From a virus (lineage: Duplodnaviria; Caudoviricetes), in the IMG/VR virus record IMGVR_UViG_3300035497_000279, positions 64,001 through 128,000 of that record: DNA of 64,000 nucleotides, one strand, 5' to 3'. Shown piece after piece: positions 33,074 through 53,865 of this stretch. The notes beneath the pieces were generated by a model. That model worked only from the letters and a program-made list of their open reading frames with translations, was not told the DNA's origin and did not search any database. The stretch's first letter is position 1. Every line of letters begins with the position of its first letter. Both the position numbers and the translations under genes were made by a program.

Positions 33074-33132
33074 CTTAATTCAATGTGCTCAATTTACTTA
33101 TTTAAATTAAAGCCATTAAACAGACTAATAAT
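33074..33132. promoter_or_regulatory. divergent late promoter pair: CACA-TTGAAT-TAAG (-, 33074-33087) and AACA-GACTAA-TAAT (+, 33119-33132)
   Basis: Between the divergent genes 33054(-) and RNAP 33152(+). Confidence 0.6.
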
Positions 33133-33151
33133 ACCGAAAGGAGGTCTTAGG

Positions 33152-37578: not shown

Positions 37579-38487
37579 ATGGCTGACATCAAAAAGACAC
37601 TCTTGAAGAAGACAATTAATGGTAAGGTCGTAGGTCTGTATCCTCAGACTAGTGCCGACATCGTTACGTACGGCGAATCAAGTACGGTTGCAGCTGAGCT
37701 TGCTGCTATTATTTCCAAAGTTGGCACTACAGACGTGTCAGCACAGATCAGCGCTGCTGTTGAGCAGGCTAAGAAGGATATCTTAGGTCTGGATGATACT
37801 AATACAAAGATCAGCGAGGCGTATGATACTCTTAGAGAGATCGCTGAGTGGATCGAGAATGATACGAATGGAGCCGCTGCCATTGCTAATGACGTAGCTA
37901 CATTGAAGTCAGATCTTAATACAGCTAATACTGGCTTAAAGGCTAGAGTTAGTGCTCTTGAGACTACAGTTGGCGATGCTAATTCTGGTCTTGTTAAGAG
38001 CGTTGCTCAGAATACATCTGACATTTCTACCAACGCTGGAAATATCTCTACAAATACTAGCGATATTACTAAGCTCAAGGGAACAGTTGGTGATTCCACT
38101 TCTGGTCTTGTAGCTGATGTTGCTAAGAATACATCTGATATTAGCACCAACGCTGCAAATATCAAGACAAATGCTGACAATATCTCTACAAATACTAGCG
38201 ATATTACTACACTTAAGGGAACAGTTGGTGATTCCAAGTCTGGCCTCGTAGCTGATGTTGCTAAGAATACATCTGATATTTCTACTAACGCTGCAAATAT
38301 CAAGACAAATGCTGATAATATCGCTACTAACGTTGCAAATATCAAGACAAATGCTGACGACATTGACGCTGCTGAGAAGAGACTTGATAGTCTTGAGGCT
38401 GCTAAGACAACTGTTCAGGTCGTTTCCTCTAGCTACTCTGAGAGCGACATGAACGCTAATGATCTGTACTTCGTAGAAATTGCATAA
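37579..38487 (+). CDS. fibre protein with N-terminal YPxTSAD module and trimeric coiled-coil stalk
   Basis: KTINGKVVGLYPQTSAD; AYDTLREIAEWI fibre motif; I-x-x-N heptads. Confidence 0.7.
   Translation: MADIKKTLLKKTINGKVVGLYPQTSADIVTYGESSTVAAELAAIISKVGTTDVSAQISAAVEQAKKDILGLDDTNTKISEAYDTLREIAEWIENDTNGAAAIANDVATLKSDLNTANTGLKARVSALETTVGDANSGLVKSVAQNTSDISTNAGNISTNTSDITKLKGTVGDSTSGLVADVAKNTSDISTNAANIKTNADNISTNTSDITTLKGTVGDSKSGLVADVAKNTSDISTNAANIKTNADNIATNVANIKTNADDIDAAEKRLDSLEAAKTTVQVVSSSYSESDMNANDLYFVEIA
37960..38370 (+). repeat. in-frame 138-bp tandem unit with 21-bp (heptad) subrepeats
   Basis: aatatctctacaaatactagcgatattacta occurs at 38041 and 38179 (138 bp apart); repeated gcaaatatcaagacaaatgctga. 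Confidence 0.85.
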
Positions 38488-38534
38488 CCGCTTATATAGA
38501 TAGTCTATGACTTCTGTATAAAAGCATAAATAAC

Positions 38535-38562
38535 CCTCTCTGGATATTATTATCCAGAGAGG
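38535..38562 (+). terminator. hairpin CCTCTCTGGATA-ttat-TATCCAGAGAGG
   Basis: 12-bp stem after 38487. Confidence 0.65.
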
Positions 38563-38589
38563 ATAAAAACTTTATAGGGCGGTGAGAAT

Positions 38590-38856
38590 TTGGAAAAGGA
38601 AGTAGAACTTAAAAAGAAGGTAGGCAATTCTGCGTATGTGATTTTCCCAAAAACATCTGCTAAACTAGTTAAGTATTCCGATACTCAATCCATCGCAGAT
38701 GTTCTTGAATCTATTTTGAGTGACATCAAATCGATTAAGAATTCTCTCGCTGTTTCTGAGACAGTATATGCAGCTGATAGTTCTGGTAAGACGATAGATG
38801 ATGGAAGCGGGGCAAACATCATTTTGTTGACTAAGGCTCCAACGACAGAAAGTTAA
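38590..38856 (+). CDS. small YPKTSA-module protein
   Basis: KKVGNSAYVIFPKTSAKLV; TTG start with GGCGGTG ribosome-binding site. Confidence 0.6.
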   Translation: MEKEVELKKKVGNSAYVIFPKTSAKLVKYSDTQSIADVLESILSDIKSIKNSLAVSETVYAADSSGKTIDDGSGANIILLTKAPTTES

Positions 38857-38917
38857 AGCAACCGTTAACAAAACATATGGTGATATTAAGTAAATTCGCG
38901 AATTGACTTACTATTAA

Positions 38918-38944
38918 ACTCCGCTAGGTAATTCCTAGCGGAGT
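38918..38944. terminator. hairpin ACTCCGCTAGG-taatt-CCTAGCGGAGT between convergent genes
   Basis: 11-bp perfect stem. Confidence 0.75.
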
Positions 38945-38957
38945 ACAATTTGTTAAA

Positions 38958-39398
38958 TTAATTTTCATCTTCTGTTTTATTAAGATCCTCAATATCAATT
39001 TTATTAGGATCATTCTTTCTTTGGTATGCTGATATTAAAGCTATTTTATCATCATTACCAGAGATAGAAATTACTAAGTATAAAATAAACTCTTTAGTTT
39101 TCAAGATATCAATTGAGTAATTTACTGATTTAACTCCTGAAAGCATTTTATCAATATTTCTATAAGTAAGGTTTATGATATCATTCTTTTCACCATGAGT
39201 TGAATAAGAACAATTATACTTATCAGTATTATCTTTAATAAAATTAAGATGTATATATACTACCCCCAAATTCTTTACATCTAATACAGCAATCATTGAT
39301 TTGGTTGTACTTTTAATGAAGGCTGCTTTCTGATTTATTAATATAGAATCATCCTCATCTTGTACAATTACTTCTAAATCTAAATCTAATTTTTCCAT
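38958..39398 (-). CDS. hypothetical protein
   Basis: GGGAGGA ribosome-binding site; own late-promoter motif at 39422-39435; hairpin downstream. Confidence 0.6.
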   Translation of the reverse strand: MEKLDLDLEVIVQDEDDSILINQKAAFIKSTTKSMIAVLDVKNLGVVYIHLNFIKDNTDKYNCSYSTHGEKNDIINLTYRNIDKMLSGVKSVNYSIDILKTKEFILYLVISISGNDDKIALISAYQRKNDPNKIDIEDLNKTEDEN

Positions 39399-39421
39399 AA
39401 GTGTATCCTCCCTTACATAAA

Positions 39422-39485
39422 TTTATAAAAATGTTATACCTTATATATTAAACCAAAATACACTTATCTTTAACATTTAAGTATA
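39422..39485. promoter_or_regulatory. divergent late promoter pair: AACA-TTTTTA-TAAA (-, 39422-39435) and AACA-TTTAAG-TATA (+, 39472-39485)
   Basis: Between 39398(-) and 39564(+). Confidence 0.55.
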
Positions 39486-39563
39486 AAAATATCTGAAGAG
39501 TGTATGATAGTTTATCTATCTTCGACAGCTATAAAAATCTAATGAAAGGTGGAATTTATAATT

Positions 39564-40103
39564 ATGAGCGTAGGAAAAGATATTTATAAAGGCGCAATAG
39601 CAAAAGAAATTGAAGGCGAACAACTAGTAATTTATCCAAAAACAAGTGCTGACATGGTAGTCGTAGGGGATTCCACCCTAGATAGTGAGATGACAAAAAT
39701 TAAAAATAATAGTTATCACCCAACCAATACTGCTAGAACTTCTGGCTTATATAATATTACGGTTGATACATATGGGCATGTAACTGGAGCTACAAAAGTA
39801 ACTACTAGTGATTTAACAGCCTTAGGAGTTGCTGAATCTACATCTGTCGAGAAAGTACATAAAGTTGAAGAATTTCTTATTTACTTTAATGATTGGGATG
39901 ATGGAATTCTTGATTTATCATCAAAGTATCCTGATGATAAATATAATGTATATATGGATAGATCATCTAAGATGGATAAAAATCAGGCTACCGCTTTAGC
40001 AAATGCCATTATCTGTGGTGATAGTACTTCTAATAAATTTAAATGCTTAGGCACTGTGCCAACAATTGATATTTGGGTAATGCTTGAAATAGTAGAAAAG
40101 TAA
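39564..40103 (+). CDS. tail-fibre-related protein (YPKTSAD module)
   Basis: KEIEGEQLVIYPKTSAD; SGLYNITVDTYGHVT fibre motif; C-terminal GTVPTIDI domain shared with 40230. Confidence 0.65.
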   Translation: MSVGKDIYKGAIAKEIEGEQLVIYPKTSADMVVVGDSTLDSEMTKIKNNSYHPTNTARTSGLYNITVDTYGHVTGATKVTTSDLTALGVAESTSVEKVHKVEEFLIYFNDWDDGILDLSSKYPDDKYNVYMDRSSKMDKNQATALANAIICGDSTSNKFKCLGTVPTIDIWVMLEIVEK

Positions 40104-40106
40104 ATA

Positions 40107-40132
40107 TAGGGATGGGGTAATTCCCATCCCTA
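40107..40132 (+). terminator. hairpin TAGGGATGGG-gtaatt-CCCATCCCTA
   Basis: 10-bp stem directly after 40103. Confidence 0.7.
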
Positions 40133-40161
40133 AATTCAGCCTATGTATATTTTATTTAAAA

Positions 40162-40175
40162 AACATCTAATTAAT
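40162..40175 (+). promoter_or_regulatory. late promoter motif AACA-TCTAAT-TAAT
   Basis: Upstream of 40230 and the adhesin array. Confidence 0.65.
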
Positions 40176-40229
40176 AATCCGTAGATTAATACAGGTTAAA
40201 AATTTTTAAAGAAAGGAAGGTACTTAAGT

Positions 40230-40976
40230 ATGGCAATCAATAAAGCTACATTAGCTAAAGAGATCGATGGTATAATCGAGTATATTTACCCTAAGACTTC
40301 TGGCGATATTGTTGTGTATGATGAAACTCATAGTGTAAGCACCATGATTCAATCCTTAGTAAATAATAAAGTTGATAAGGAAGACAATAAGGGATTGTCT
40401 ACTAATGACTTTACTAATTACTATAAGAATATATTGGACAATTATGAGAGCAAAGACGATACTGTTAATATTACTATAGATAGTACTTTATCTAGTTCTA
40501 GTGAGAATGCTGTTCAAAATAAAGTATTGACATCTAAATTTAATGAGATTCTTAATACTATTGGATCTACTGCATACATAACAGGAATCGGAGATGGAAC
40601 AATTACAAACGCTATTAAGTATGTAAAGGACTCTATTGAGACTTCATCTTCAAAAAATGAAGAATCATATAAAACCCTTACCCAGAGTATTGCTGATGTA
40701 AAGGCTTCTAGAGAACCCACACATACAATCGTAGCTTATACATTAAAGGCTAGTGGTTGGGAAAATGGTAAGTATTCTTTGGAAGCAGACTATTCATCTT
40801 CTAAGTATAATGTGTATATTGATAAGGGTGTTAATGTAACTCAGGATCAAAATGATGCACTTGCTGCGGCTAATATTTCTAGCTCTATTGGCAATAATAT
40901 TCTTACAGTAAATGGTACTGTACCAACAATTGATATCCCTGTAACGCTTGAAGTTGTGGATATCTCTGATACTTAA
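40230..40976 (+). CDS. tail-fibre-related protein (YPKTS module)
   Basis: KEIDGIIEYIYPKTSGD; KVDK..KGLSTNDFT, DSTLS..SENAVQNK and IGDGTIT fibre motifs; GTVPTIDI. Confidence 0.65.
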   Translation: MAINKATLAKEIDGIIEYIYPKTSGDIVVYDETHSVSTMIQSLVNNKVDKEDNKGLSTNDFTNYYKNILDNYESKDDTVNITIDSTLSSSSENAVQNKVLTSKFNEILNTIGSTAYITGIGDGTITNAIKYVKDSIETSSSKNEESYKTLTQSIADVKASREPTHTIVAYTLKASGWENGKYSLEADYSSSKYNVYIDKGVNVTQDQNDALAAANISSSIGNNILTVNGTVPTIDIPVTLEVVDISDT

Positions 40977-41011: not shown

Positions 41012-41470
41012 ATGGGAAATGAAATTGAAAAGTGTGATACATATATAAATATTAAGCGTTTTAAGAGTTTTTCTATGGGGAAGACATTTAATATTCCATT
41101 TGGTACTAAATGTATTTGTAACTCTGATGGATTAATTATCAGAGAAAATAAAGATGGAGATAATGACATATTGTGTTATTTTAAATCTGAAAATGCATAC
41201 AGATACTTTGTACCTATGATAGATGATCATTGGCTTGAAAGAGGTAATTTACAGAAAGCTATTTGGAATAAGATAGATTCTACTGTATCATCAGTGGAAA
41301 TTCATGATAAATGCTTTGATATTTTATTAGAAGACACTATTGCAAATAAATATAGAAAGATGAACGATGATGTTGATAGATCTATGTTTAATTGGGACCG
41401 TTTGAAATTTAACTATGCACCATTATATGATTTGCAACATATGTGGTCTATTATAAAAGATGTAAAATAG
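41012..41470 (+). CDS. hypothetical protein of tail-fibre gene clusters
   Basis: NIPFGT..LC..SENA..F..ERG pattern recalled from Firmicute phage tail regions. Confidence 0.55.
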   Translation: MGNEIEKCDTYINIKRFKSFSMGKTFNIPFGTKCICNSDGLIIRENKDGDNDILCYFKSENAYRYFVPMIDDHWLERGNLQKAIWNKIDSTVSSVEIHDKCFDILLEDTIANKYRKMNDDVDRSMFNWDRLKFNYAPLYDLQHMWSIIKDVK

Positions 41471-41487
41471 AAAAGGAGGATTAAAAA

Positions 41488-41715
41488 ATGGACGAGAATG
41501 AAAATGAGAAAACAGTTCAAACTGAGTATGAGCAGATCATGCAGGTTCTTGCTTCAATGAGAAATTTGATGCAGAGTATTAAGAAAGATCTTAGTGACTT
41601 TATTGATCTTAGACATGAAGAGAGTACCACATCCATTACTGAATCTCAGTTAGCATTAGCAGAGCTTGCTGAAATGTTAGCTGATGGTTCTTCTACAGAA
41701 GAGGAGGTAAAGTAA
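41488..41715 (+). CDS. putative tail-fibre assembly chaperone (XkdW-like C-terminus)
   Basis: ESQLALAELAEM motif, followed directly by a CD1375/XkdX-like small gene. Confidence 0.55.
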   Translation: MDENENEKTVQTEYEQIMQVLASMRNLMQSIKKDLSDFIDLRHEESTTSITESQLALAELAEMLADGSSTEEEVK

Positions 41716-41716
41716 T

Positions 41717-41842
41717 ATGGCTAAAGTATATTATAATCTTATCAAGAATGAAAATATTGATTTCACTATTGATTATGTACCTGAGAGGTGGAAAGCAGCT
41801 GTACAGAAACTGCTTGATGAAGATAAGGATAATTCTATTTAA
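41717..41842 (+). CDS. CD1375/XkdX-like small protein, 41 aa (MAKVYYNLIKNENIDFTIDYVPERWKAAVQKLLDEDKDNSI), not in the ORF track
   Basis: Translated by hand; GGAGGT ribosome-binding site; MAKVYY.LIK..TID.VP.RW..V motif. Confidence 0.7.
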   Translation: MAKVYYNLIKNENIDFTIDYVPERWKAAVQKLLDEDKDNSI

Positions 41843-41860: not shown

Positions 41861-43828
41861 ATGTCTGCAATTGTTAGAAACATAGGAGAACAAATGACTG
41901 CCTCTGCAACTGCAACATCGATTATTGTAGATACATTACCCACTAAGATAGACTACAAAGTCGGAGAGATTTTAGATCTCTCCGGCATGATCGTATCTAT
42001 ACAATATGATGACGGAAGCTCTGAGCAGATTTCAAATTATACCACACATCCTGATAATGGAGCTACACTTACAAAACTTGATGATGTAGTATCAGTATCT
42101 TGGGTATCTGATGATGGAATTACAGAAGCTGTATCATTTGATATCAATGTAAAATACGTAAAAGGAATTAGTGTTGTTGATACTCCTACAAAAACATCGT
42201 ATGTTGCTGGAGAAACATTTAGCTCAAGTGGACTTACTGTATACAAAAATTATTCTGATGGAACATCTGAGCAAATTACTGACTATTCTTTATCTGATAT
42301 AGTAGATGGAACGATTGTTAGTAAGAATACTGATACTACTGTAGACGTTAGTTATACTGATGAATATGATGAAACTTTTAGTACATCATTTAATATTAGT
42401 GTAAAATATGTTACAGGAATTACTATAACAACTAACCCTACAAAAACATCGTATACTGCTGGAGATTCACTTAGTTTAAGTGGAATGGTAGTTAAGAAAA
42501 ATTACTCAGATAATACATCTGAGGAAATTACTGATTATACTACATCTCCTGCTAAGGGAGCTACTCTTACTAAGTCTGATAGCACTGTAACTGTTAGTTA
42601 CACTACCAATAGTGAAACTTTTACTACCTCTTATAGTATTACTGTAAAGTATGTAACTGGTATTACTGTTTCAACCAAGCCTACAACAACATCATACTAT
42701 GCTGGAGATACTCTTGATTTAACTGGAATGGTGGTTAAGAAGAAATATTCAGATGGCACAACTTCAACCATAACTGGTTATACCACATCACCTTCTGAAT
42801 ATTCAACACTTATTAAGTCTGATACTAGCGTTACTGTAAAATATACTACCGATGGTAGTACTTTTACTACATCATTTAGTATTACTGTAGCATATGTTAC
42901 AGGGATTAAAGTGTATACGAAGCCAACTACAACTACCTACACAGCTGGTGCTAAGCTAAGTACATCCGGAATGGTTATCCATAAAGTGTATAGTGATAAT
43001 ACTAGTGTTAAGATTACCAATTGGACTACATCCCCTACCAATGGATCAACATTGAGTACATCAAATACAAAGATTACAATTACAGCCACTGTTGATAGTA
43101 CTAGTTATACTTGTACCCAGAGTATTACAGTTAAGGCTGCTATTGCATATTGGGCTACCAGTACATATTCGGCTATTTCAACCTTTTTAAGTTCTGTAGA
43201 TAATGGTGATTATAGTATTTCTTCATATTGGTCTGTTGGTGATGAGAGAACTATTACTCTTAGTGATGATGATAGTACCGAACTTACATTTGTTGTAGAG
43301 GATTTAAATGGTAGCACATCTGGCGGAACTAAATACCATGCTATTATTGGACAAAAGGAAATATACGATGACCTCACCAAATTCGCAAGTTCAACTGTTA
43401 CTGGATATAATAATTCAGATATAAAAACATATCTGAACGATACTTATTATACATATTTACCTTCTACATTTAAAAACATAATTAAATCTAGTAGCCATAT
43501 TGCAGGCACTACTTCTGGTTCTACTCAAACAGTCTCTAGTGTTAAATTTGTATTGCGCTCAGAAAAAGAAGTTATTGGTGAATGTACATATTCTGTATCT
43601 ACTGAAGCTAGTAAATGTAAACAATTTACATATTATGCTACAACTAGTAATAGAATTAAATACTGGGATAGTAATAGCACAAATAATAGAATTAGAACCC
43701 ATGAATACTGGACTAGATCATGTTGCACGGCCAGTAGTACCCCAGGTGTATGTATAGCTAGTGATGGAGATTCATGGGCCTGTAACCAAGGTAAAAATGA
43801 GGGAGTATCTCCATTCTGTTGTATTTAA
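41861..43828 (+). CDS. adhesin paralog 1: 5 Ig-like (Big_3-type) domains + DUF6273/CLec-like tip
   Basis: Repeats of I-x-V-x-x-P-x-K-T-x-Y-x-x-G-D/E-x-L-D-L-x-G-M-V-V; tip motifs YWSVGDER, YWTRS, GVSPFCCI. Confidence 0.75.
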   Translation: MSAIVRNIGEQMTASATATSIIVDTLPTKIDYKVGEILDLSGMIVSIQYDDGSSEQISNYTTHPDNGATLTKLDDVVSVSWVSDDGITEAVSFDINVKYVKGISVVDTPTKTSYVAGETFSSSGLTVYKNYSDGTSEQITDYSLSDIVDGTIVSKNTDTTVDVSYTDEYDETFSTSFNISVKYVTGITITTNPTKTSYTAGDSLSLSGMVVKKNYSDNTSEEITDYTTSPAKGATLTKSDSTVTVSYTTNSETFTTSYSITVKYVTGITVSTKPTTTSYYAGDTLDLTGMVVKKKYSDGTTSTITGYTTSPSEYSTLIKSDTSVTVKYTTDGSTFTTSFSITVAYVTGIKVYTKPTTTTYTAGAKLSTSGMVIHKVYSDNTSVKITNWTTSPTNGSTLSTSNTKITITATVDSTSYTCTQSITVKAAIAYWATSTYSAISTFLSSVDNGDYSISSYWSVGDERTITLSDDDSTELTFVVEDLNGSTSGGTKYHAIIGQKEIYDDLTKFASSTVTGYNNSDIKTYLNDTYYTYLPSTFKNIIKSSSHIAGTTSGSTQTVSSVKFVLRSEKEVIGECTYSVSTEASKCKQFTYYATTSNRIKYWDSNSTNNRIRTHEYWTRSCCTASSTPGVCIASDGDSWACNQGKNEGVSPFCCI

Positions 43829-43909
43829 TTAAATCATATTGTATATAAATTTCCTAATATTATATTTACTCGATATATAAAGCATAAAAATAAGAAAGGA
43901 AAATAAGCT

Positions 43910-45916
43910 ATGTCTGCAATCGCTAGAAATTGCGGTGGAGCATTACCCGTCGCAAAGATACTTCATGTAACTGCACCTGCTAAGACTAGCTACGCTTCTG
44001 GAGATAAATTAAATCTTTCCGGAATGTCTGTAACTGTCGAATATACTGATGGTAATATTGAAGAAGTTACTGATTTTAGTACATCTCCCGCTAATGGTGC
44101 TAAGCTTACTAAAGGTACCAATATAGTTAACGTCAATTGGACTGACGAAGATGGTTACACTTTAACTGCATCATTCGGTATTACAGTGAAATATGTAATA
44201 GATATTTTTATTACAAGTAATGCTAAACATACTGTTTTTGATGTAGGTGATTTTCTTAATACTAATGGGTTGGAAGTTTCTGCTAAATATTCTGATAATA
44301 GTTCTAAACCTATAGATATTAATAGTTTATCATTCTCTCCTGAAGAGCAAGCTCAACTTAAGCTGGGAGATGATGAAGTTAGAATTTATTATGAGTGTGA
44401 TGACGGAGAATTTGCTATTTTATACCCAATATCAGTGGCACTTCCAACAATTGCTGTTACAACATTGCCTAAAAAGACTAGTTATATAGAAGGAGAAATT
44501 TTAGATTACACTGGTATAGGTATTACTTTACAATATAATACTGGTGAAACTGAAGATATTAGTAATTCAACATCTACTTCTATATATCCATATAATGAAA
44601 CTGAAGTTGATAAAGATAAGACAGATATTACTGTAACTTATAATGACGTATTTGGTAATACCATGACTACATCATTCAAAATAACTGTAGCGTCAATGAC
44701 AGGTATTAAAGTAGTATCCAAACCAAATATAACTACTTATGTTAAAAACCAACATGTTAACACTGATGGTCTTGTAGTTTATGCTGAATATGACAATGGT
44801 GCATCTAAAGAGATTACTGATTATACTACATCTCCTGCTAATGGGACTGAGCTTACTGATACCACTACTGTAACAGAAATAGTTGTTAATTATACAGATA
44901 GTAGTGGTAAAACTTTTAGTGATTCTATACCTATTGAATATAACGCTGTTAAACAGATTATGTTCAATAGTGTTAGTATTATAGATGAAATAATCTACCC
45001 AGGTACAAAACTTGATTATGAAGATTATAATATTGAAATTGTTGGTATTTGTTATGATGGAAGTAGTTTTACTTTATCGGAAGATGAATACACTTTATCT
45101 CCTGCTGATGGTACTAAATTAACTGTAGATGATAAAGAAATTATAGCTACTGCTACTCTTAGTGGAGAAACATTCACAGTATCTTATCCTATCACAGTAG
45201 CATATGATACTGCTAAATGGACATCATCAACATACTCAACTATTAAAAAATTCCTTTCTTCATGTGATGCTGGAGTTTATGATATTAAATCATATTGGTC
45301 AGTTGGTGATGAAAGAAGTATAACTTTTAGTAGTAATACTGTTGGTGAAACTGTTACAGGAGTTGTAATGGATTTAGATGGTACTACATCTGGTGGAACT
45401 AAATATCATGCTATTATTGGTCAGAAGAATTGTTTGAAGACCACTATGGCAATGACCAATTATAGTGATGGGACAACTTATGGTGGGTATCTTAATTCAC
45501 CTGTACCTACTTATTTAACTGGAACTTATTATAAAGGTATTACATCATCTTTAAAAGATATGATTATTCTAAGTGACCATATATGTGGTTTTGGTGGTGA
45601 AGATACAACAGATATATATGACCCAATACAATTAGTTCGTGACTATATTATTCTGCCTTCTGAAATGGAAGTAATTGGGTATAATAGGTATTCTTCTCCA
45701 AATGAAACACTTATGTGTAAACAATTTGAATGGTATAAAACAACAGCCAATTGTATAAAAACTCTTGGAAATAGCTCAACAACAAAAACTGTTTGGACAC
45801 TTAGATCGCCAGTATTAGGATCATCAACTGCATATTGTGCTGTTGATACATCTGGGATGTATACCTCTTATGATGCAAGTACCAAAGGTGGTATTTCACC
45901 ATTTTTCTGCATATAA
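43910..45916 (+). CDS. adhesin paralog 2: 5 Ig-like domains + DUF6273-like tip
   Basis: Same architecture; WTLRS, GISPFFCI. Confidence 0.75.
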   Translation: MSAIARNCGGALPVAKILHVTAPAKTSYASGDKLNLSGMSVTVEYTDGNIEEVTDFSTSPANGAKLTKGTNIVNVNWTDEDGYTLTASFGITVKYVIDIFITSNAKHTVFDVGDFLNTNGLEVSAKYSDNSSKPIDINSLSFSPEEQAQLKLGDDEVRIYYECDDGEFAILYPISVALPTIAVTTLPKKTSYIEGEILDYTGIGITLQYNTGETEDISNSTSTSIYPYNETEVDKDKTDITVTYNDVFGNTMTTSFKITVASMTGIKVVSKPNITTYVKNQHVNTDGLVVYAEYDNGASKEITDYTTSPANGTELTDTTTVTEIVVNYTDSSGKTFSDSIPIEYNAVKQIMFNSVSIIDEIIYPGTKLDYEDYNIEIVGICYDGSSFTLSEDEYTLSPADGTKLTVDDKEIIATATLSGETFTVSYPITVAYDTAKWTSSTYSTIKKFLSSCDAGVYDIKSYWSVGDERSITFSSNTVGETVTGVVMDLDGTTSGGTKYHAIIGQKNCLKTTMAMTNYSDGTTYGGYLNSPVPTYLTGTYYKGITSSLKDMIILSDHICGFGGEDTTDIYDPIQLVRDYIILPSEMEVIGYNRYSSPNETLMCKQFEWYKTTANCIKTLGNSSTTKTVWTLRSPVLGSSTAYCAVDTSGMYTSYDASTKGGISPFFCI

Positions 45917-45968
45917 TAACCTAAATAATAAAACTAATCAATAATACTAGAATGAAAGGAAGAGAGCT

Positions 45969-47483
45969 ATGTCTGCAATCGTTAGATATTGTGGTGGTAG
46001 TGTAATAGATAATTCTGATTCTACTACTGTAACTGCAAAAGTACTTCATGTAACTGCACCTGCTAAGACTAGCTACAATGCTGGAGATATTTTAGATATC
46101 TCTGGCATAATTGTAACTGTAGAATATAGCGATGGTACAACTAAACAAGTTGATGATTTTAGTACATATCCGTATAATGGAACTGCAATTTCTAAGAACA
46201 CTAGTAGTGTTTCAGTAAATTGGAGTGATGAAAATGGTACTAGTCTTGCATCATCATTTGACATTAGTGTAAAGTATGTGACAGGAATCAATGTAGATAC
46301 TTTACCAAATAAAACCATGTATGTTGAAGGTAATACTATTGATCTTACTGGATTAGTAGTATCTGCCAAGTATTCTGATGGAACATCAGAAACCATTTCT
46401 GGCTATACAACATCTCCTGCTAATAGTGCTGAAGTTTCTAGAAATGATTCTAAGGTTACTATTAGTTACACTATTAGTAATGAGACCTTTAATACATCTT
46501 ATGATATTACTGTAAAATATGTTACAGGAATTAAGGTTACTACACCTCCAACTAAAACTTCATATGCTGCTGGGGATAAATTAAGTACAGCTGGAATGGT
46601 TGTATCTTCAGTATATAGTGATAATACTACAGAAGATATTACAGATTATACTACATCTCCTGCTAATGGTGCCGCATTAAAATCATCAGATACTTCTATC
46701 TCAATTAGTGCCACAATAAATAATACTAAGTATACAACATCTCAGACTATTACTATTGCTCCTTCAGTTGCATATTGGGGGACTAGTAGTGCTGTAGAAA
46801 TTGCTGATTTCTTAGAGAAATGTGATGCTGGAACTTATGATATTAGTTCATACTGGTCTATTGGAGATGAAAGATATATGGAAATGTATCCATATAGTGA
46901 TGACGATACTGCTAATGTATCTGAAGATATCTCATATGTAATAGAAGATTTAGATGGTACTACATCTGGTGGGACTAAATATCATGCTATTATTGGTCAG
47001 AAGAATTGTTTGAGCATTGGAATTAAGATGAATAGTAGCAATGATAACCGTGGAGGCTACTCAAACACTGATATGTGTGTATATCTTGAAGGTACTTATG
47101 AATCTAAATTCCCAGAGGATTTACTTAAACTCATTATACCAAGTAATCATATTTCAGGCAATGGTTCTAGTGGAACTCAGACAAATAATAATGTTAAATT
47201 CATACTGCATTCGGAGAAAGAAATTCTTGGTGACTGTGTGAATTCTATTCAAGATGAAGCTAGTGCATGTAAGATGTTTAAATACTATGCTATAAGTAGT
47301 AACCGTATAAAGAAGTTAGGAGAATCAGGAATTGATACTAACTGGTGGTTAAGATCTAGTGGTTCAGGATATTCTTATTCATTCTGTACTATAACTGGAT
47401 CTGGAAGTTCTGGTTCAACTGCTGCTGGTGGTATAGGTTATTGTACTACTGAAAATGGTGTTGCACCATTCGCTTGCATTTAA
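45969..47483 (+). CDS. adhesin paralog 3: 3 Ig-like domains + DUF6273-like tip
   Basis: Same architecture; WWLRS, GVAPFACI. Confidence 0.75.
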   Translation: MSAIVRYCGGSVIDNSDSTTVTAKVLHVTAPAKTSYNAGDILDISGIIVTVEYSDGTTKQVDDFSTYPYNGTAISKNTSSVSVNWSDENGTSLASSFDISVKYVTGINVDTLPNKTMYVEGNTIDLTGLVVSAKYSDGTSETISGYTTSPANSAEVSRNDSKVTISYTISNETFNTSYDITVKYVTGIKVTTPPTKTSYAAGDKLSTAGMVVSSVYSDNTTEDITDYTTSPANGAALKSSDTSISISATINNTKYTTSQTITIAPSVAYWGTSSAVEIADFLEKCDAGTYDISSYWSIGDERYMEMYPYSDDDTANVSEDISYVIEDLDGTTSGGTKYHAIIGQKNCLSIGIKMNSSNDNRGGYSNTDMCVYLEGTYESKFPEDLLKLIIPSNHISGNGSSGTQTNNNVKFILHSEKEILGDCVNSIQDEASACKMFKYYAISSNRIKKLGESGIDTNWWLRSSGSGYSYSFCTITGSGSSGSTAAGGIGYCTTENGVAPFACI

Positions 47484-47513
47484 TTATATTAATAAACCAA
47501 TACATCATGAATC

Positions 47514-47538
47514 CAATAAAGCATTACGCTTTATTGGG
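47514..47538 (+). terminator. hairpin CCAATAAAGC-attac-GCTTTATTGG inside the adhesin array
   Basis: 10-bp stem, extendable with G-U pairs, between paralogs 3 and 4. Confidence 0.6.
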
Positions 47539-47609
47539 TTTATGGTATTATTATTTAAAATATATAGCACTAGTGCTAAAATAATTTTATAGATTGAAGG
47601 TGATATTAA

Positions 47610-48587
47610 ATGTCTTTAATTATTAGAAATAATCCTACAGGTAAAAATAAATCTGTAGAATCAATTGAGATTATATCTCCGCCTACAAAGACTAAGTATA
47701 AAGATGGTGAAACTATAAATTTAGATGGAATGATAGTGGCAAAAAAATATGATGATAACAGTTTTGAAATGGTTACAGATTATGCCGCTACTCCAGCCAA
47801 TGGAGAAACATATGCAGCAGATACAATAGAATCAATCACAGTAACTGTTACTATAGATGAAACAGAATATACTTGTTCTCAAAATATTACTAATATTCCT
47901 AACGATATTGCATATTGGGGGACTAGTTATTTCAGTGATATCAAAACATTTTTAGCAGCATGTGATGATGGAGTATATGATATTAAATCATATTGGTCGG
48001 TTGGTGATGAAAGAGGTATTGATTATACTGATGGATATGATAATATATTTGTAGTTGAAGATTTAGATGGTACTACATCTGGTGGAACTAAATATCATGC
48101 TATTATTGGAGAGAAAAATTCTAATTATTACAATCACATGTTTAATACAACAGATTATGATACTAGCGGTGGGTATAATGGTACTGAAATGAAAACCTAT
48201 ATTGATGATACTTATTATACTTATATACCTTCTCAATTTAGAAAAATAATAAAAAAATCAGATCATATTTCAGGAGCTGGTGCGTCTGGGATACAAACAA
48301 CCTCTGGAGTTAAATTCATACTGCATTCAGAGAAAGAAATTTTAGGCAAATGTGAATATTCTGTCCAAGAAGAGGCTGATGCATGTAAACAGTTTGAGTA
48401 CTTTAAAACAAGTTCTAATAGAATAAAAGATGATTATTGGTGGACAAGATCTACAAAATCAAATACTCAATACCAATTCTGCGCAATTAATAAAACAGGA
48501 GATAGTTACGGAGCATATGCTGGTCTTAATTCTTCTGGCGTTGGTGATGGAGTAGGATTAGGTATTATTGCATTTTGTTGTATTTAG
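47610..48587 (+). CDS. adhesin paralog 4: 1 Ig-like domain + DUF6273-like tip
   Basis: Same architecture; WWTRS, GIIAFCCI. Confidence 0.75.
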   Translation: MSLIIRNNPTGKNKSVESIEIISPPTKTKYKDGETINLDGMIVAKKYDDNSFEMVTDYAATPANGETYAADTIESITVTVTIDETEYTCSQNITNIPNDIAYWGTSYFSDIKTFLAACDDGVYDIKSYWSVGDERGIDYTDGYDNIFVVEDLDGTTSGGTKYHAIIGEKNSNYYNHMFNTTDYDTSGGYNGTEMKTYIDDTYYTYIPSQFRKIIKKSDHISGAGASGIQTTSGVKFILHSEKEILGKCEYSVQEEADACKQFEYFKTSSNRIKDDYWWTRSTKSNTQYQFCAINKTGDSYGAYAGLNSSGVGDGVGLGIIAFCCI

Positions 48588-48618
48588 GTAATATATTAAG
48601 AATAAGAAGGTGATAACT

Positions 48619-50340
48619 ATGTCTGCAATTGTTAGGAATACTGGAGGTAATGGAGGAGTATCCAGGAAACCTGCACAATCAATCACTGTAACTACACCTC
48701 CAAATAAAACTTCATATAAAGCAGGAGAACTTTTAGACCTTACAGGATTAGTTGTTACAGCAGAATATTATAATGGAGATATAGATACTATTACAAGTTA
48801 TACTACATCTCCTGCTAATGGTGCTAAACTTACTAAAGATGATACTAGTGTTAGTATCGTATATACAGATAGTAAGGATAATACTACAATTACATCATTT
48901 CCTATTAATGTAGCATATGTAACTAGTATTAGTGTTACAGCACAACCTACAAAAACTAGCTATAAAGAAGGAGAATCTTTAGACCTTACAGGATTAGTTG
49001 TTACAGCAGATTATTCAGATAATACATCTGATGAAATTACTGATTATACTACATCTCCCACTAATGGAGCTAAACTTACTAAAGATGATACAACTATTAA
49101 CGTTAGTTATACAAATTATGAAAGTAATAGTATAGATACATCATTCACTATTGATGTAAAATATGTGACTAATGTAAGTATTACTAGTAATCCAACTAAA
49201 ACTACATACTATGAAGGAGATACTCTTGATTTAACCGGTATGGTAGTTACTGCATATTATAGTGATGATACTCATGAGACCACATTAGATTATACTACAT
49301 CCCCTAAAAATGGAGCAATACTTACTAGAAACGATACATACCTTAGTGTAAGTTATATATCACCTAGTGGTTCAGGATATGGATCAATGATTAATCTTAC
49401 TGTAAAATATATAAAAAGTATTACGTCATATAAGACAAGAACTACATACTATAATGGAGAAGAATTAAATCTATCCGATTTAACAGTATATGCTGTATAT
49501 AATACAGATAGCAGAAAAGAACTTTCTAGTTCAGATTACACTACATCTCCTGCTAAATGGACAAAATTAACCACATCAGACACTGAGATTGAAATTACTG
49601 CTACAATAAATGGTACTGAATATACATGCACTCAGAGTATTACCGTTAAACCTAATGTAATTGCCTATTGGGGAACAAGCTCTTTTGGTGATATTGCTGC
49701 GTTTTTGGCTGGATGTTGGAATGATACTTATAACATTGAATCATATTGGTCTGTTGGTGATGAAAGAAGCATAGAATTAGGCGGAGATATAAATGAGACT
49801 GTAACATATGTAGTGGAAGATTTAGTTGGAAATTCCAGTGGAGGTACATCATATAAAGCAGCTGTAGGACAAAAAAATTCTTTGAGTGAAAAAAGATCAA
49901 TGCATGATTCTAATACATTTATTAAATCATATATGTATTCAGATCTAAGAACTTGGTTGAATGATACATATTATAATTCAATACCGGAAGGATTTAAATA
50001 TATTATAAGAGGTCCACTTGATCGGTATAATGCCTATGATGGAAGTGCAGATTCTGATTTTGATTATTTCGTTTTGCATAATGAAATACAGGTTTTTGGT
50101 AATCAAACATTTGGAACTAGTGATGATATAGGAGAATTCTCAAGGCAATTTGAATGGTATAGCACTACAAGTAATCGTATAAAGAAGATAGGTGATTCTG
50201 GATCTGCTGGTATGTGGTGGCTTAGTGATTTTGAGACAAATAATACAGTTTATTGTGTAGTTGTTTCTGAAGATGGTACCAATGAATATAGAACTGGGAA
50301 AGGATCAAGTGTTGGTGTCGCTCCATATACTCAATTATAA
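48619..50340 (+). CDS. adhesin paralog 5: 4 Ig-like domains + DUF6273-like tip (most divergent tip)
   Basis: Same architecture; SDLRTWLN, WWLSD, GVAPYTQL. Confidence 0.75.
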   Translation: MSAIVRNTGGNGGVSRKPAQSITVTTPPNKTSYKAGELLDLTGLVVTAEYYNGDIDTITSYTTSPANGAKLTKDDTSVSIVYTDSKDNTTITSFPINVAYVTSISVTAQPTKTSYKEGESLDLTGLVVTADYSDNTSDEITDYTTSPTNGAKLTKDDTTINVSYTNYESNSIDTSFTIDVKYVTNVSITSNPTKTTYYEGDTLDLTGMVVTAYYSDDTHETTLDYTTSPKNGAILTRNDTYLSVSYISPSGSGYGSMINLTVKYIKSITSYKTRTTYYNGEELNLSDLTVYAVYNTDSRKELSSSDYTTSPAKWTKLTTSDTEIEITATINGTEYTCTQSITVKPNVIAYWGTSSFGDIAAFLAGCWNDTYNIESYWSVGDERSIELGGDINETVTYVVEDLVGNSSGGTSYKAAVGQKNSLSEKRSMHDSNTFIKSYMYSDLRTWLNDTYYNSIPEGFKYIIRGPLDRYNAYDGSADSDFDYFVLHNEIQVFGNQTFGTSDDIGEFSRQFEWYSTTSNRIKKIGDSGSAGMWWLSDFETNNTVYCVVVSEDGTNEYRTGKGSSVGVAPYTQL

Positions 50341-50367
50341 TCTATGAATAGGAAGGTGGTAATAATT

Positions 50368-51633
50368 ATGTCTTCATTTGTTAGAAATATTGGTGGTAGT
50401 GCGTATACTGATGGGGATTCTGAATCTGGTGGTGGTTCGTCTGATTCTAAAGTGGTAAGATTTATTACTATAACTAAACCTCCGAATAAATTAGAATATG
50501 TTGATAATGAACCTTTAAATACTTCTGGATTAATTATATCTGCAATATTTGCTAATGGTAATACAGAAATCATTAGTGATTATACTACATCTCCTGCTAA
50601 TGAAGAAGCACTTACTCTAGGTAATAATACTGTCACTGTAACTTATACAGATCAAGATGGCTATGAATTAACTACATCATTTAATATAAAATACATTACA
50701 GGAATTATTGTTACCTCGCCTCCAGATCAAATTAAATATTATCCTGATGATGGTAATAATACTTTAGATCTTACTGGCATGATTGTATCTGCTTTATGTG
50801 ATGATAATTCAACTACTCCAATTACTGACTATACTACATCATTAAATAATGGTGATATAATTACTTTAGATACTGATTCTAATATTACAATTAGAGCCAC
50901 AATAGACGGAACAGAATTTACAACAACTCAAGAAATATTTATAGTATCAGCAGTAAGTTACTGGGCTACAAGTACCACAGAGGATATTGCAAGATTTTTA
51001 AAATGCGTAGATAAAAATATTTATGATATTAAATCATATTGGGTTGTTGGTGATGAAAGAGATATAACTATGGGAAATTCTCTACCAAATACAACTTATG
51101 TTGTAATGGATTTAGATGGTACTACATCTGGTGGAACTAAATATCATGCTGTTGTTGGAGAGAAAAACTCCACTATAATTAAAGACTGGGAATATGATAG
51201 TAATAATGATGGCGCATATCATGGATATACTTATAATACTGCTTGGTCAAAGTATTTTACAGATACATATGTACCAGCATTTCCAGAAGATATACTTTCA
51301 CTAATCATACCAAGTGATCATATGTGTGGGTATGTAAATGAATCTAAAGAAATATCTGGGGAAGTAATAACTGGAGTTTATTTTATTATACCTTCTGAAA
51401 AAGAAGTTTTTGGTGCTGATTCTAAAGGATTTGCATCACCAGTTGAAACTGCTGCATGTAAACAATTTGAATGGTATAAAACAAGCGCTAATAGATCAAA
51501 GAATGTATGGTTATGGTGGTTAAGATCTGTTTATGTTGCTAACTGGAGTTTATGTCCTACCGTATATGGAGGTAATCAATCTGCATCTAGTAGTGGAATG
51601 GGGGCTTACTTAGCTCCATTCGCATGTATATAA
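50368..51633 (+). CDS. adhesin paralog 6: 2 Ig-like domains + DUF6273-like tip
   Basis: Same architecture; WWLRS, LAPFACI. Confidence 0.75.
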   Translation: MSSFVRNIGGSAYTDGDSESGGGSSDSKVVRFITITKPPNKLEYVDNEPLNTSGLIISAIFANGNTEIISDYTTSPANEEALTLGNNTVTVTYTDQDGYELTTSFNIKYITGIIVTSPPDQIKYYPDDGNNTLDLTGMIVSALCDDNSTTPITDYTTSLNNGDIITLDTDSNITIRATIDGTEFTTTQEIFIVSAVSYWATSTTEDIARFLKCVDKNIYDIKSYWVVGDERDITMGNSLPNTTYVVMDLDGTTSGGTKYHAVVGEKNSTIIKDWEYDSNNDGAYHGYTYNTAWSKYFTDTYVPAFPEDILSLIIPSDHMCGYVNESKEISGEVITGVYFIIPSEKEVFGADSKGFASPVETAACKQFEWYKTSANRSKNVWLWWLRSVYVANWSLCPTVYGGNQSASSSGMGAYLAPFACI

Positions 51634-51652
51634 GGAGGTGGTAATAATTATT

Positions 51653-52888
51653 ATGTCTTCATTTGTTAGAAATATTGGTGTGGGCATAAGTAATCAATCT
51701 TCTTATTCTGGTGATTATGAAGTAGCAAGATTTATTAGCATGGATGCATTACCGACCAAAACGCTATACATTCCTGGAGAATCTTTAGATCTTTCTGGTG
51801 TATCAATAATAGCAAAGTATAATGATGGTACAAATAAAGAAATTACTGATTATACTACATCTCCTGCTAATCATGCTGCTCTTACTGAGAATGATACTAC
51901 TATTAATGTATCTTGGATTGCCGAAGATGGTTATGAATTAACCACGTCATTTGATATAAAATTCATAAAAGGTATTACTATTACATCACCCCCTACAAAA
52001 ACAGCTTATTTAATTTATACAAACTTAGATCTTTCTGGAATGGTAGTTGCCATTGAATATTACGATGGTACTCTAGTTCCAATTACTGATTATACTGTGT
52101 CACCAGTCGATGGTACAGTATTAGATATTGATAACTCATCAGTTACAATTACCACTACAATAAATGATACTGAATTCACTGTAGTTCAGGATATTTTTGT
52201 CGGATCTGCAATTGCATATTGGGGTACTAGTAGTGCTCAAGAAATATCTGACTATTTAAATTCTGTAGATAGAGGAGTATATAACATATCAGATTACTGG
52301 GCAGTTGGTGATGAAAGAGATATAACTCTTACAAAAGATAATAGCAATGTAACTGTTAAATACGTAATAGAAGATTTAGATGGTACTACATCTGGAGGAA
52401 CTAAATACCATGCTATTATTGGGCAAAAAGATAATAATATTAGTGGATTTAGTACTGGATATACTACTAGTGGTAGTATATACGTTGGGTATAATGATTC
52501 TCTTCTTAGGGATTTTATTGATAATACTTATACACCGGCATTCCCAGATGATATATTTTCATTAATTATACCAAGTGATCATGTGTCTGGGTATTATAGT
52601 GGCGGTCAATACTTATTACAAAATAACTCTAATGTGTATTTCATATTATATGCAGAAAAAGAAGTTTTTGGTGATAATGCATATAGATCAATACCAGACG
52701 AACTTAGTGCATGTAAACAATTTGAATACTTTAAAACAACTAGTAATAGAATAAAGACGAATGCATACTGGTTAAGATCTGCTCCCTATAATACTACTGG
52801 TGATTACTGTGGTAATGTAGATACTGTGTATGCTAATACATTTAGTTCTAATGGTGGCGAACCTGTTCTGCCATTCGCATGTATATAA
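51653..52888 (+). CDS. adhesin paralog 7: 2 Ig-like domains + DUF6273-like tip
   Basis: Same architecture; YWLRS, VLPFACI. Confidence 0.75.
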   Translation: MSSFVRNIGVGISNQSSYSGDYEVARFISMDALPTKTLYIPGESLDLSGVSIIAKYNDGTNKEITDYTTSPANHAALTENDTTINVSWIAEDGYELTTSFDIKFIKGITITSPPTKTAYLIYTNLDLSGMVVAIEYYDGTLVPITDYTVSPVDGTVLDIDNSSVTITTTINDTEFTVVQDIFVGSAIAYWGTSSAQEISDYLNSVDRGVYNISDYWAVGDERDITLTKDNSNVTVKYVIEDLDGTTSGGTKYHAIIGQKDNNISGFSTGYTTSGSIYVGYNDSLLRDFIDNTYTPAFPDDIFSLIIPSDHVSGYYSGGQYLLQNNSNVYFILYAEKEVFGDNAYRSIPDELSACKQFEYFKTTSNRIKTNAYWLRSAPYNTTGDYCGNVDTVYANTFSSNGGEPVLPFACI

Positions 52889-52897
52889 TATCATATA

Positions 52898-52921
52898 ACC
52901 ACCTAGCAAATGCTAGGTGGT
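52898..52921 (+). terminator. hairpin ACCACCTAGC-aaat-GCTAGGTGGT ending the adhesin array
   Basis: 10-bp stem followed by T-rich sequence. Confidence 0.75.
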
Positions 52922-53001: not shown

Positions 53002-53865
53002 TTGACTATTACAAAAGCAGATACATATTATAAGAATACTTTATCCAATATACTTTCTTTTGGATGTATGGATATTAATCCTAGACCTAAATATTCTGAT
53101 GGTACACCTGCACATACAATAAGTATAAACCATGATATGCAAACTTATAATTTGCCTGCTGGTGATTCACCATTTGTAACTTTAAGACCTATATCAATTA
53201 AATCATCTATTGGAGAGATGCTTTGGATATATCAAGATCAATCTAATGATTTAGATCTTTTAAAAGAAAAGTATGGAATTACATGGTGGGATGAATGGGA
53301 TATCGGTAATCGTACTATAGGATCATGCTATGGAGAGACTATAAGAAGACATGATCTTATGAATCAATTATTGGAGGGTATTAAGAACGATCCAGATGGA
53401 AGAAGACACATAATAAATATGTGGCAGGTAGATGATTTTAAAGAAAAACATGGACTAAAACCATGTTGTTTTCAAACAGTATGGAATGTTAGACATAGTG
53501 AATCTGGAGTTACATATTTAGACATGTGTATGTTTCAGAGATCATCAGATTTTGCTGTAAGTTCACCAATCAATCTTTTACAATATATAGCATTATTGTA
53601 CATGGTTGCTGGGCATTTTAAATACACCCCTGGAAAATTCTCATATTTTATTGATAATATCCAGATATATGATCGTCATATATCACAAGTAAAAACTATT
53701 ATTAATAGAGAGCCATGTATGTTTGATGTTGATGATCAACCACATTTTGAAATTCCTCAGAAGAACTTTTATGATTATACTATAGATGATTTTAAAGTTG
53801 TTGGTTATCCAATGAGAGAAATTAAGGCAAAAAATCCACAGCTTAAATTTGATCTCGGTATTTAA
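53002..53865 (+). CDS. thyA: thymidylate synthase ThyA
   Basis: IWDEW-like TWWDEW, PDGRR, LKPCCFQ (catalytic Cys), QRSSDF, N-x-x-Q-Y, IYDRH; TTG start with AGGAGGT ribosome-binding site. Confidence 0.92.
   Translation: MTITKADTYYKNTLSNILSFGCMDINPRPKYSDGTPAHTISINHDMQTYNLPAGDSPFVTLRPISIKSSIGEMLWIYQDQSNDLDLLKEKYGITWWDEWDIGNRTIGSCYGETIRRHDLMNQLLEGIKNDPDGRRHIINMWQVDDFKEKHGLKPCCFQTVWNVRHSESGVTYLDMCMFQRSSDFAVSSPINLLQYIALLYMVAGHFKYTPGKFSYFIDNIQIYDRHISQVKTIINREPCMFDVDDQPHFEIPQKNFYDYTIDDFKVVGYPMREIKAKNPQLKFDLGI

Follow-up and report, generated by a model that had tools for sequence, protein, structure and literature searches.

The window analysed here comprises 64,000 nucleotides (bases 64001-128000) of the linear, 235,843-bp IMG/VR record IMGVR_UViG_3300035497_000279, and at 41861-52888 carries seven plus-strand genes (g1-g7) encoding immunoglobulin (Ig)-stalked proteins with a C-type-lectin-like (CLec) tip. 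On balance, we consider this array to be a fixed, germline-encoded set of seven specificities on differing stalks, which replaces a diversity-generating retroelement (DGR) and makes no new variants during infection. The seven genes would give rise to monomer-like 'beads-on-a-string' fibres of a jumbo phage, each anchored by a short N-terminal strand that is followed in most copies by a Gly-rich linker, with its reach set by a stalk of one to five Big_3 Ig domains and its binding domain provided by a distal DUF6273 (CLec) head, in which the ligand-binding surface would be the ~30-40 residues between WWLRS and the C-terminal PFxCI. The locus would do without a retroelement, the gene having instead been multiplied in tandem: the tip and tip-proximal Ig repeat would have been copied as a unit, the middle repeats then gained or lost internally, and the copies would have diverged most in the former variable region (VR). 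We infer display on the virion (tail or baseplate most likely), N-terminal anchoring and binding of host-surface or environmental glycans or proteins, as well as a direction of change in which a DGR was lost, or never gained.

Architecture of the array

The seven open reading frames (ORFs) are separated by gaps of 19-126 nt, and each (7/7) opens with an ATG lying 6-10 nt 3' of a Shine-Dalgarno sequence (GGTG, AGGA or GGAGG), bearing out the initial annotation, made from the sequence alone, of seven tandem, co-oriented paralogues that begin MS(A/S/L)(I/F)(V/A/I)R(N/Y) (Table 1). A purpose-built repeat hidden Markov model (HMM) returns the same Ig-like repeat counts as that annotation, 5, 5, 3, 1, 4, 2 and 2 from g1 to g7 or 22 in all, each of ~81 aa. 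Pfam recognises Big_3 (PF07523) above the gathering score in five of the seven proteins, the purpose-built HMM adding repeats in g4 and g6, and residues 14-98 of a structural model of g4 match 4fdw with a Z-score of 8.8. In a repeat comparison the copies are alike at only 60-80% at the DNA level, and are therefore old paralogues rather than recent duplicates. The thymidylate synthase gene (thyA) starts at 53002, 113 nt after g7, an interval so short that it leaves no room for a reverse transcriptase (RT) or template repeat (TR). The spacers preceding the array genes hold no AR9-type late promoter, AACA(N6)TW, and a sigma-70-like promoter scan gave matches below the shuffled expectation.

The tip domain

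Pfam places DUF6273 (PF19789) at all seven C-termini, over the last 225-237 aa, with scores of 27.8-53.4 bits for g1-g4, g6 and g7 (gathering cut-off 23.5). The g5 match is weaker, at 18.4 bits alone, under the cut-off, and 24.8 bits with neighbouring stretches. The seven array tips are the only DUF6273 copies in the whole 236-kb genome. The conserved C-terminal scaffold motifs described initially are present in the tip alignment, with deviations in g5, the divergent tip (Table 1), and in g2, which is partly divergent (AKW, VWTLRS). Pairwise, the tips are 34-54% identical; over the stretch from the tip start up to WWLRS the mean is 46%, falling to 16% between that motif and the last six residues, in agreement with the earlier observation that variability is highest between WWLRS and the C-terminus. 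The segment of maximal divergence among the seven tips, from RS(P) to just before PFxC, is the segment that DGRs rewrite in relatives.

The g4 protein was modelled at full length using AlphaFold with a 70-row alignment, its rows drawn from a search of 1.84 billion representatives that gave 5560 relatives at E<=0.001. The model (pLDDT 92.2, pTM 0.82) is uncertain only at residues 1-5, which are disordered, and in the loop 308-313. Superposition of residues 100-325 on residues 32-282 of 9qa6_A, an N-terminal domain of the peptidase ThomasA labelled DUF6273 by its authors (PMC12402451), results in a Z-score of 15.3 and an rmsd of 2.1 Å over 165 aligned residues, with 12% identity. Weaker matches of the tip to CLec folds include the Legionella Lcl C-terminal domain (8q4e, Z 7.5), TvpA (2y3c, Z 7.0), PvdO (5hha, Z 6.4), the Bdellovibrio fibre tip Bd2740 (Z 6.0), many animal C-type lectin-like domains (Z ~5) and BPP-1 Mtd (1yu0, Z 4.8); they are numerous and consistent, yet all lie under Z 8, the safe level of the comparison tool. 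These tip matches come from exhaustive comparison (VIA-align), Foldseek searches of the PDB with the whole g4 model giving chiefly Ig-domain matches. A homotrimer prediction for g4 (three copies, wide alignment) scored 0.00, which counts neither for nor against oligomerisation. Between them, the Pfam assignment and the proximity of the model to 9qa6 identify the tips as DUF6273, and the weaker CLec matches are consistent with the initial view of them as C-type-lectin-like. That view had also held such tips to be typical DGR targets, and work on gut phages does characterise DUF6273 as a C-lec-like domain targeted by DGRs, with the VR at its C-terminal end (PMC10743442, PMC11792537, bioRxiv 10.1101/2024.10.15.618418). 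Two further proteins, P0035 (3973 aa) and P0037 (3404 aa), contain 12 and 10 DUF6273 stretches per chain, placing the repertoire idea in a single polypeptide.

A DGR in sister phages and its absence from this record

PHROG matches in the window include virion structural proteins and the virion RNA polymerase (vRNAP) beta subunit (33083-37498), whose nearest cultured relatives, at ~28-31% identity, belong to the Bacillus PBS1 group and to the S6-type jumbo phages of Staphylococcus. By this sequence kinship the source genome is to be regarded as a 236-kb PBS1/AR9-like jumbo phage, distant from cultured ones. The window has a GC content of ~31% and no tRNA was found in it. Megablast of the array locus against GenBank phages matched nothing, and a search for related loci with the tip alignment confirmed none.

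Five related jumbo phages were fetched by means of vRNAP beta (63-74% identical). In the closest sister (G004) the gene order is vRNAP, w302-like, w88-like, w248-like, a variable block, thyA (75% identical) and w335-like. Here the variable block consists of w152-w75-w41 and the seven array genes; in G004 it consists of a 291-aa DUF6273 gene, a 242-aa gene, a TR, a 381-aa RT and a 103-aa gene, and the 12 mismatches between its VR (L016:18438-18525) and TR (20458-20545) all fall at TR adenines (12/12). Another sister (G002) has w152 and w75 homologues, a single 915-aa gene, a 205-aa gene, a TR and a 414-aa RT, with 17/18 VR/TR mismatches at TR adenines (L014). The 915-aa protein has the N-terminus MPTLVNMGGG and eight Ig repeats, and its tip matches an HMM of the seven array tips at E 6e-47. 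In a further relative (G001, 98% complete) thyA follows ~1.2 kb after the vRNAP gene, and the record contains neither DUF6273 nor RT. Compared over window positions 33083-53865 and loci L013, L014 and L016, the vRNAP beta-thyA interval is a variable island, measuring ~1.2 kb in G001, ~8 kb in G004, where it includes a DGR, and ~15.5 kb in this phage, where it includes the seven-gene array. As an intact DGR and a DUF6273 gene occupy the syntenic locus of two sisters, a paralogue array instead of a DGR is a real evolutionary alternative.

DGR association extends to more distant relatives. The nearest small-phage homologues (P0005 and P0006), whose tips are 33-36% identical to those of the array, vary between themselves almost exclusively beyond WWQRSP, and their contig (L005) holds a VR/TR pair with 28/29 mismatches at TR adenines. 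Another close homologue adjoins an RT in a 126-kb phage contig that needs TGA to be read as W (L012; JGI 3300001598, EMG_10000089). On this contig Big_3 and two DUF6273 stretches are combined in one protein of 685 aa; an RVT_1 gene lies 750 nt downstream and an Mtd_N gene upstream. G002 also has a second, stalk-less DUF6273 gene on the minus strand just upstream of vRNAP (L014:9139-9864), which is 36% identical to the g4 tip and whose 3' end has no match to the TR within the fetched locus. In a jumbo-phage review, DGRs appear in the reference list only (PMC7824862).

The present record, with an estimated completeness of 75%, contains no RVT_1 domain in its 235,843 bp. Nothing in this genome corresponds to the RTs or accessory proteins of G002 and G004 (best E above 1); as a control, the two RTs detect each other at 1e-54. 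Searches for a template-like copy of the tip 3' ends (last 213 nt per gene) matched only paralogous scaffold positions and nothing outside the array, and the sister-phage TRs gave no significant match in this genome, the VR/TR pairs of L005, L016 and L014 serving as positive controls. Nor was allelic hypervariation seen in the VR, the tips being 100% identical in three assemblies. Within the ~75%-complete record the locus is thus RT-free, as first proposed, without RT, accessory gene or TR, so that variation lies between gene copies and not between retroelement-written alleles.

Origin of the seven copies

Placed in a tree with sister-phage tips and homologues from elsewhere, the array tips come together in a single clade (support 93/93), and the DGR target of G002 groups apart from it with P0042, P0047 and the tip of a syntenic scaffold, L011 (87/94). 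Monophyly of the seven tips indicates an expansion, or a later homogenisation, specific to this lineage. Terminal branches are long, at 0.5-1.8 changes per site, and the inner topology is star-like. When all 22 Ig repeats are placed in one tree, those next to the tip in six genes fall into a single clade (100/99), middle repeats cluster by gene, and the first repeats of g2 and g3 pair (99/96). This topology would fit duplication of the last Ig repeat and tip as a unit, with stalk length later changed by internal gain or loss of repeats.

The 7.7-kb scaffold L011 encodes 191-, 164-, 69- and 42-aa proteins that match w248, w152, w75 and w41 at 35-56% identity. The first fibre gene of this scaffold, likewise with five repeats, aligns with g1 from end to end at 42% identity, and its second paralogue is split over three reading frames with a truncated tip (L011:5002-7684); tandem paralogues are thus not confined to the present lineage, and they are subject to turnover. 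Behind the second paralogue come three small ORFs, each carrying a WW(L/E/V)RS motif and a tail of unusual length; they could be the remains of tips, partial cassettes or artefacts of assembly.

Fixed repertoire or continuing diversification

The array is 99.98% identical in contigs of two other JGI samples (three assemblies in all), with four mismatches, all in the g5 Ig repeats near contig ends. No long near-identical tracts were found between paralogues, and approximately unbiased (AU) tests for conflict between stalk and tip histories gave p values of 0.06-0.40, none significant. The initial annotation had envisaged a repertoire built by paralogue expansion and exchange: expansion is supported by the single clade of tips, and active exchange is not supported, given their 34-54% identity, the AU tests and the near-identity of the assemblies. 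In the comparison of the locus across relatives that it called for, the same array recurs in three assemblies with no chimeras shown, the sister phages have other states of the locus, and the broken L011 paralogue shows turnover. Same-phage contigs from the two other samples end at 49332 and 49485 and the next starts at 49328, the region 49107-49485 holding all four mismatches; the contigs may stop within g5 because the repeats disrupt assembly, or because repeat number differs among members of the population.

Several observations weigh against a fixed set that replaces a DGR. The three assemblies may stem from one study and one population, which makes their agreement a poor guide to stability over long periods. 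Positions 45371-45437 of g2 and 46947-47013 of g3 are identical at 66 of 67 nt (98.5%), in genes otherwise ~65% alike, and in all tips the YWSVGDER, DLDGTTSGGTKYHA and ACKQF blocks show raised synonymous-codon identity, 0.72-0.80, where the array genes' own codon usage predicts 0.48-0.57. Together these point to some past exchange between copies; possible causes are short gene-conversion tracts or a nucleotide-level constraint. The G004 target is a very distant DUF6273 on a long branch, with neither Ig stalk nor N-terminal peptide, and evolution may have run either way, by loss of the DGR or by its gain. With the record ~75% complete, a distant RT and TR could still, though improbably, lie outside it. 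The VR-equivalent segments contain 68% NNY codons compared with 60% elsewhere, and ~10% compared with 7% for those ending in C (g2 left out), which would be at best a weak relic of a DGR codon signature. Finally, the phage is uncultured and known from metagenomes only, and for the presence of the seven proteins in virions the evidence is positional, from homologues.

Among the alternatives, a role in capsid or neck decoration, in which Hoc-like adherence proteins would hold the virion on mucus, biofilm or particles rather than determine host range, is unlikely but not negligible. A string of Ig-like units bearing a distal binding domain is a typical trait of Hoc-like decoration proteins, the label 'Hoc-like head decoration' has been given to some DUF6273 DGR targets (bioRxiv 10.1101/2024.10.15.618418; PMC10743442), the model Ig domain matches the mycobacteriophage Douge capsid (8zdh, Z 5.7) and the phi29 prohead (6qvk, Z 5.2), and a fibritin-like coiled-coil gene (w302, Fibritin_C match) lies 3.4 kb upstream of the array. 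Homologues with the same stalk and tip are found instead in tail modules or with a tail-fibre N-terminal domain: P0063 combines Phage_tail_fib (PF12571) with Big_3 and DUF6273, in Dulem virus 34 the homologue comes after the baseplate genes, in the tail-fibre slot, and the L005 homologue directly follows a tail-fibre-like gene. In two further loci (L019 and L020) genes with the N-terminal peptide lie just upstream of an unannotated 1294-aa gene, presumably a tape measure judging by size alone. These contexts do not locate the proteins in the present phage, and Pfam finds no PF12571 N-terminal domain in the seven array proteins.

Active RT-free diversification, with new variants arising via gene conversion or unequal crossing-over and the conserved DNA blocks acting as recombination anchors, seems to us distinctly improbable. 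In its favour stand the raised synonymous identity and the 67-nt block, the pairing of the first g2 and g3 repeats, which the tip data nearly reject (p-AU 0.06), and the turnover evident in the broken L011 paralogue. Set against this are the low identities and long terminal branches of the tips, the lack of long near-identical tracts or significant tree incongruence and the identical array in three assemblies; moreover, the synonymous conservation is explicable in part by codon bias together with purifying selection acting on the codons of the motifs.

We give little credence to the array encoding non-virion proteins, that is, intracellular or released recognition proteins such as sensors or host-takeover factors. 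The proteins have no signal peptide, six of the seven have no structural-protein PHROG match, and DUF6273 does occur in non-virion proteins (the ThomasA peptidase, PMC12402451, and the giant proteins with 10-12 copies). However, phage virion proteins do not need signal peptides, the array sits inside a block of fibre-like genes, and the Big_3 stalks, the tail-module contexts of homologues and the homologue with a tail-fibre N-terminal domain speak for a virion role. Least credible of all is a DGR in the unassembled part of the genome that hypermutates at least one tip in trans, making the array a multi-target DGR locus: the record is incomplete, several or remote targets are known (PMC10743442; bioRxiv 10.1101/2024.10.15.618418) and the tip family is a classic DGR target, but 236 kb hold no RT, accessory gene or TR, the place adjoining the target where RT and TR lie in both sisters is here filled to within 113 nt of thyA, the VR-equivalents hold K, E, Q, W and M codons without the GC-rich NNC pattern of relatives' VRs, and the tips do not vary across the three assemblies.

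The N-terminal peptide and the genes upstream

The strict motif MS[ASL][IF][VAI]R[NY] occurs in the 236-kb genome at the seven array starts and in one 19-codon chance match. A start composed of a hydrophobic strand and a Gly-rich linker is more widespread, being present in 43 of 175 DUF6273 family members taken from contigs unrelated to one another (for instance MALTVHNAGGGG, MSVIVKGGGGG and MPTLVNMGGG); in this genome it opens just 11 of the 163 ORFs that reach 150 aa or more, and four of those 11 are array genes. Judged by sequence, the N-terminal peptide is a family-wide feature, not one private to the seven array genes.

Three small genes (w152, w75 and w41) lie between the array and its upstream neighbours, and precede the fibre gene or genes in syntenic relatives. 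The family of w152 (128-188 aa, phrog_29409) is found directly 5' of genes with the strand and GGG start in five of five loci (G000, L011, G002, L019 and L020). L019 and L020 have near-identical flanks and different fibre genes in the slot, DUF6273-tipped in one and with other tips in the other, and the L020 genes downstream of the 152-aa homologue keep the N-terminal peptide with other distal domains. G004 has neither the 152-aa gene nor the N-terminal peptide. A word-indexed homologue search with the 152-aa protein returned only itself. In its model (pLDDT 84) the N-terminal part forms an SH3-like barrel and the other half is helical, and the model gave no informative structural match (best Z 5.1; best viral Foldseek match uncharacterised). 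We infer that this family is a candidate adaptor or chaperone, and its pairing with the strand and linker motif suggests a general docking or loading module. A bolder and doubtful extension is that the seven fibres compete by their shared anchor peptide for limited docking sites, possibly offered or loaded by the 152-aa protein, each virion then carrying a random mix of seven lectin specificities on five stalk lengths, such that bet-hedging at the population level would functionally take the place of the DGR hypermutation of sister jumbo phages.

Just upstream of w152, four fibre-like paralogues (w302, w88, w184 and w248) share an N-terminal motif, (A/G)KEI.G....IYPKTSADIVVY, that differs from the array peptide, and the C-terminal domain of w184 and w248 is shared with the end of a tail-fibre-like protein in L011. 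Two fibre families thus stand side by side, each with its own N-terminal anchor.

Table 1. Features of the array and its surroundings (window coordinates unless a locus is named)
Feature	Position	Strand	Description
w302, w88, w184, w248	37579-40976		fibre-like paralogues of 302, 88, 184 and 248 aa
w152, w75, w41	41012-41842	+	small genes of 152, 75 and 41 aa
152-aa family members	41012-41470; L011:1723-2217; L014:16983-17549; L019:9995-10378; L020:9995-10378
g1	41861-43828	+	655 aa; MSAIVRN; 5 Big_3 Ig repeats; DUF6273 tip aa 429-655; VR-equivalent 43721-43807
g2	43910-45916	+	668 aa; MSAIARN; 5 Ig repeats (r2, r5 very divergent); DUF6273 tip aa 435-668; VR-equivalent ~45809-45895
g3	45969-47483	+	504 aa; MSAIVRY; 3 Ig repeats; DUF6273 tip aa 268-504; VR-equivalent 47358-47462
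Terminator-like hairpin and T tract	47504-47546	+	after g3; divides array into g1-g3 and g4-g7 units
g4	47610-48587	+	325 aa; MSLIIRN; 1 Ig repeat; DUF6273 tip aa 101-325; modelled protein; VR-equivalent 48453-48566
g5	48619-50340	+	573 aa; MSAIVRN; 4 Ig repeats; most divergent tip (WWLSD, end PYTQL); VR-equivalent 50230-50319
g6	50368-51633	+	421 aa; MSSFVRN; 2 Ig repeats; DUF6273 tip; VR-equivalent 51529-51612
g7	51653-52888	+	411 aa; MSSFVRN; 2 Ig repeats; DUF6273 tip; VR-equivalent 52781-52867
Intrinsic-terminator-like hairpin	52898-52921	+	array end

Relation to known systems

The closest functional parallels are the DUF6273 DGR targets of gut phages, including the tentaclins (Baykov et al. 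2023, PMC10743442), those of Faecalibacterium prophages (PMC11792537) and the Toutatisvirus hotspot (bioRxiv 10.1101/2024.10.15.618418), which likewise place a C-lec head on a flexible Ig string, vary most at the C-terminal end of DUF6273 and have a proposed role in receptor binding or adhesion. Some phages keep such target genes without a DGR (PMC10743442, PMC11792537, bioRxiv 10.1101/2024.10.15.618418). The array differs in being seven tandem paralogues without a DGR in a PBS1/AR9-like jumbo phage. Tentaclins, moreover, have an N-terminal C-lec head, between one and four domains of Ig-like type and a C-terminal anchoring Ig with a consensus motif (PMC10743442), whereas all seven array proteins have the inverted order, Ig first and DUF6273 last, and end in PFxCI with no Ig after the head, as judged by domain order. 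By this inversion the array proteins are therefore not tentaclins as defined; nor, on the evidence of this record, do they count as DGR targets.

Alternative binding domains held side by side on a shared N-terminal anchor are known from phages with several receptor-binding proteins, such as Klebsiella phiK64-1, the CBA120 tailspikes and the 'conserved peptide' of KP32-type phages, all of them trimeric beta-helix depolymerases. The array consists instead of Ig strings with lectin-fold heads and variable stalk length, and is the syntenic counterpart of a DGR. BPP-1 Mtd, which we take to be a trimeric tail-fibre tip, and Treponema TvpA have a C-lec fold with the binding surface in the C-terminal variable segment, which the array tips appear to share; the array, unlike these, has no RT or TR in its record. 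ThomasA of Thomasclavelia ramosa (PDB 9qa6; PMC12402451), an IgA peptidase, provides the closest solved structure to the tip, but is a secreted bacterial peptidase and not a phage fibre. T4 Hoc is similar as an Ig-like string that projects from the virion and is linked to adhesion (a comparison that presumes virion display of the array proteins), and differs in its C-terminal capsid-binding anchor and lack of a lectin head (PMC10743442).

What appears new here is a direct syntenic contrast between DGR and array inside one jumbo-phage clade, together with an inverted architecture of graded stalk length and a family-wide anchor motif with a companion gene. DGRs are, to our knowledge, the only dedicated protein-hypermutation system in phages. 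One locus in one clade exists in three states, as a target with its DGR, as seven fixed paralogues without DGR and empty; as fold and binding segment are shared, what hypermutation costs and brings can be weighed directly against a hard-wired repertoire, and the clade bears on the question of what selects for keeping or losing DGRs. If the seven fibres do compete for docking, the clade would contain a natural 'germline repertoire versus somatic hypermutation' pair. Two unannotated fibre-system parts also emerge, the strand and Gly-rich linker motif (in about a quarter of DUF6273 fibre proteins) and the small protein family that precedes it, both candidates for a general docking mechanism permitting tip swaps. 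Elsewhere in the window, a single ORF of 3771 aa extends from 2492 to 13807.

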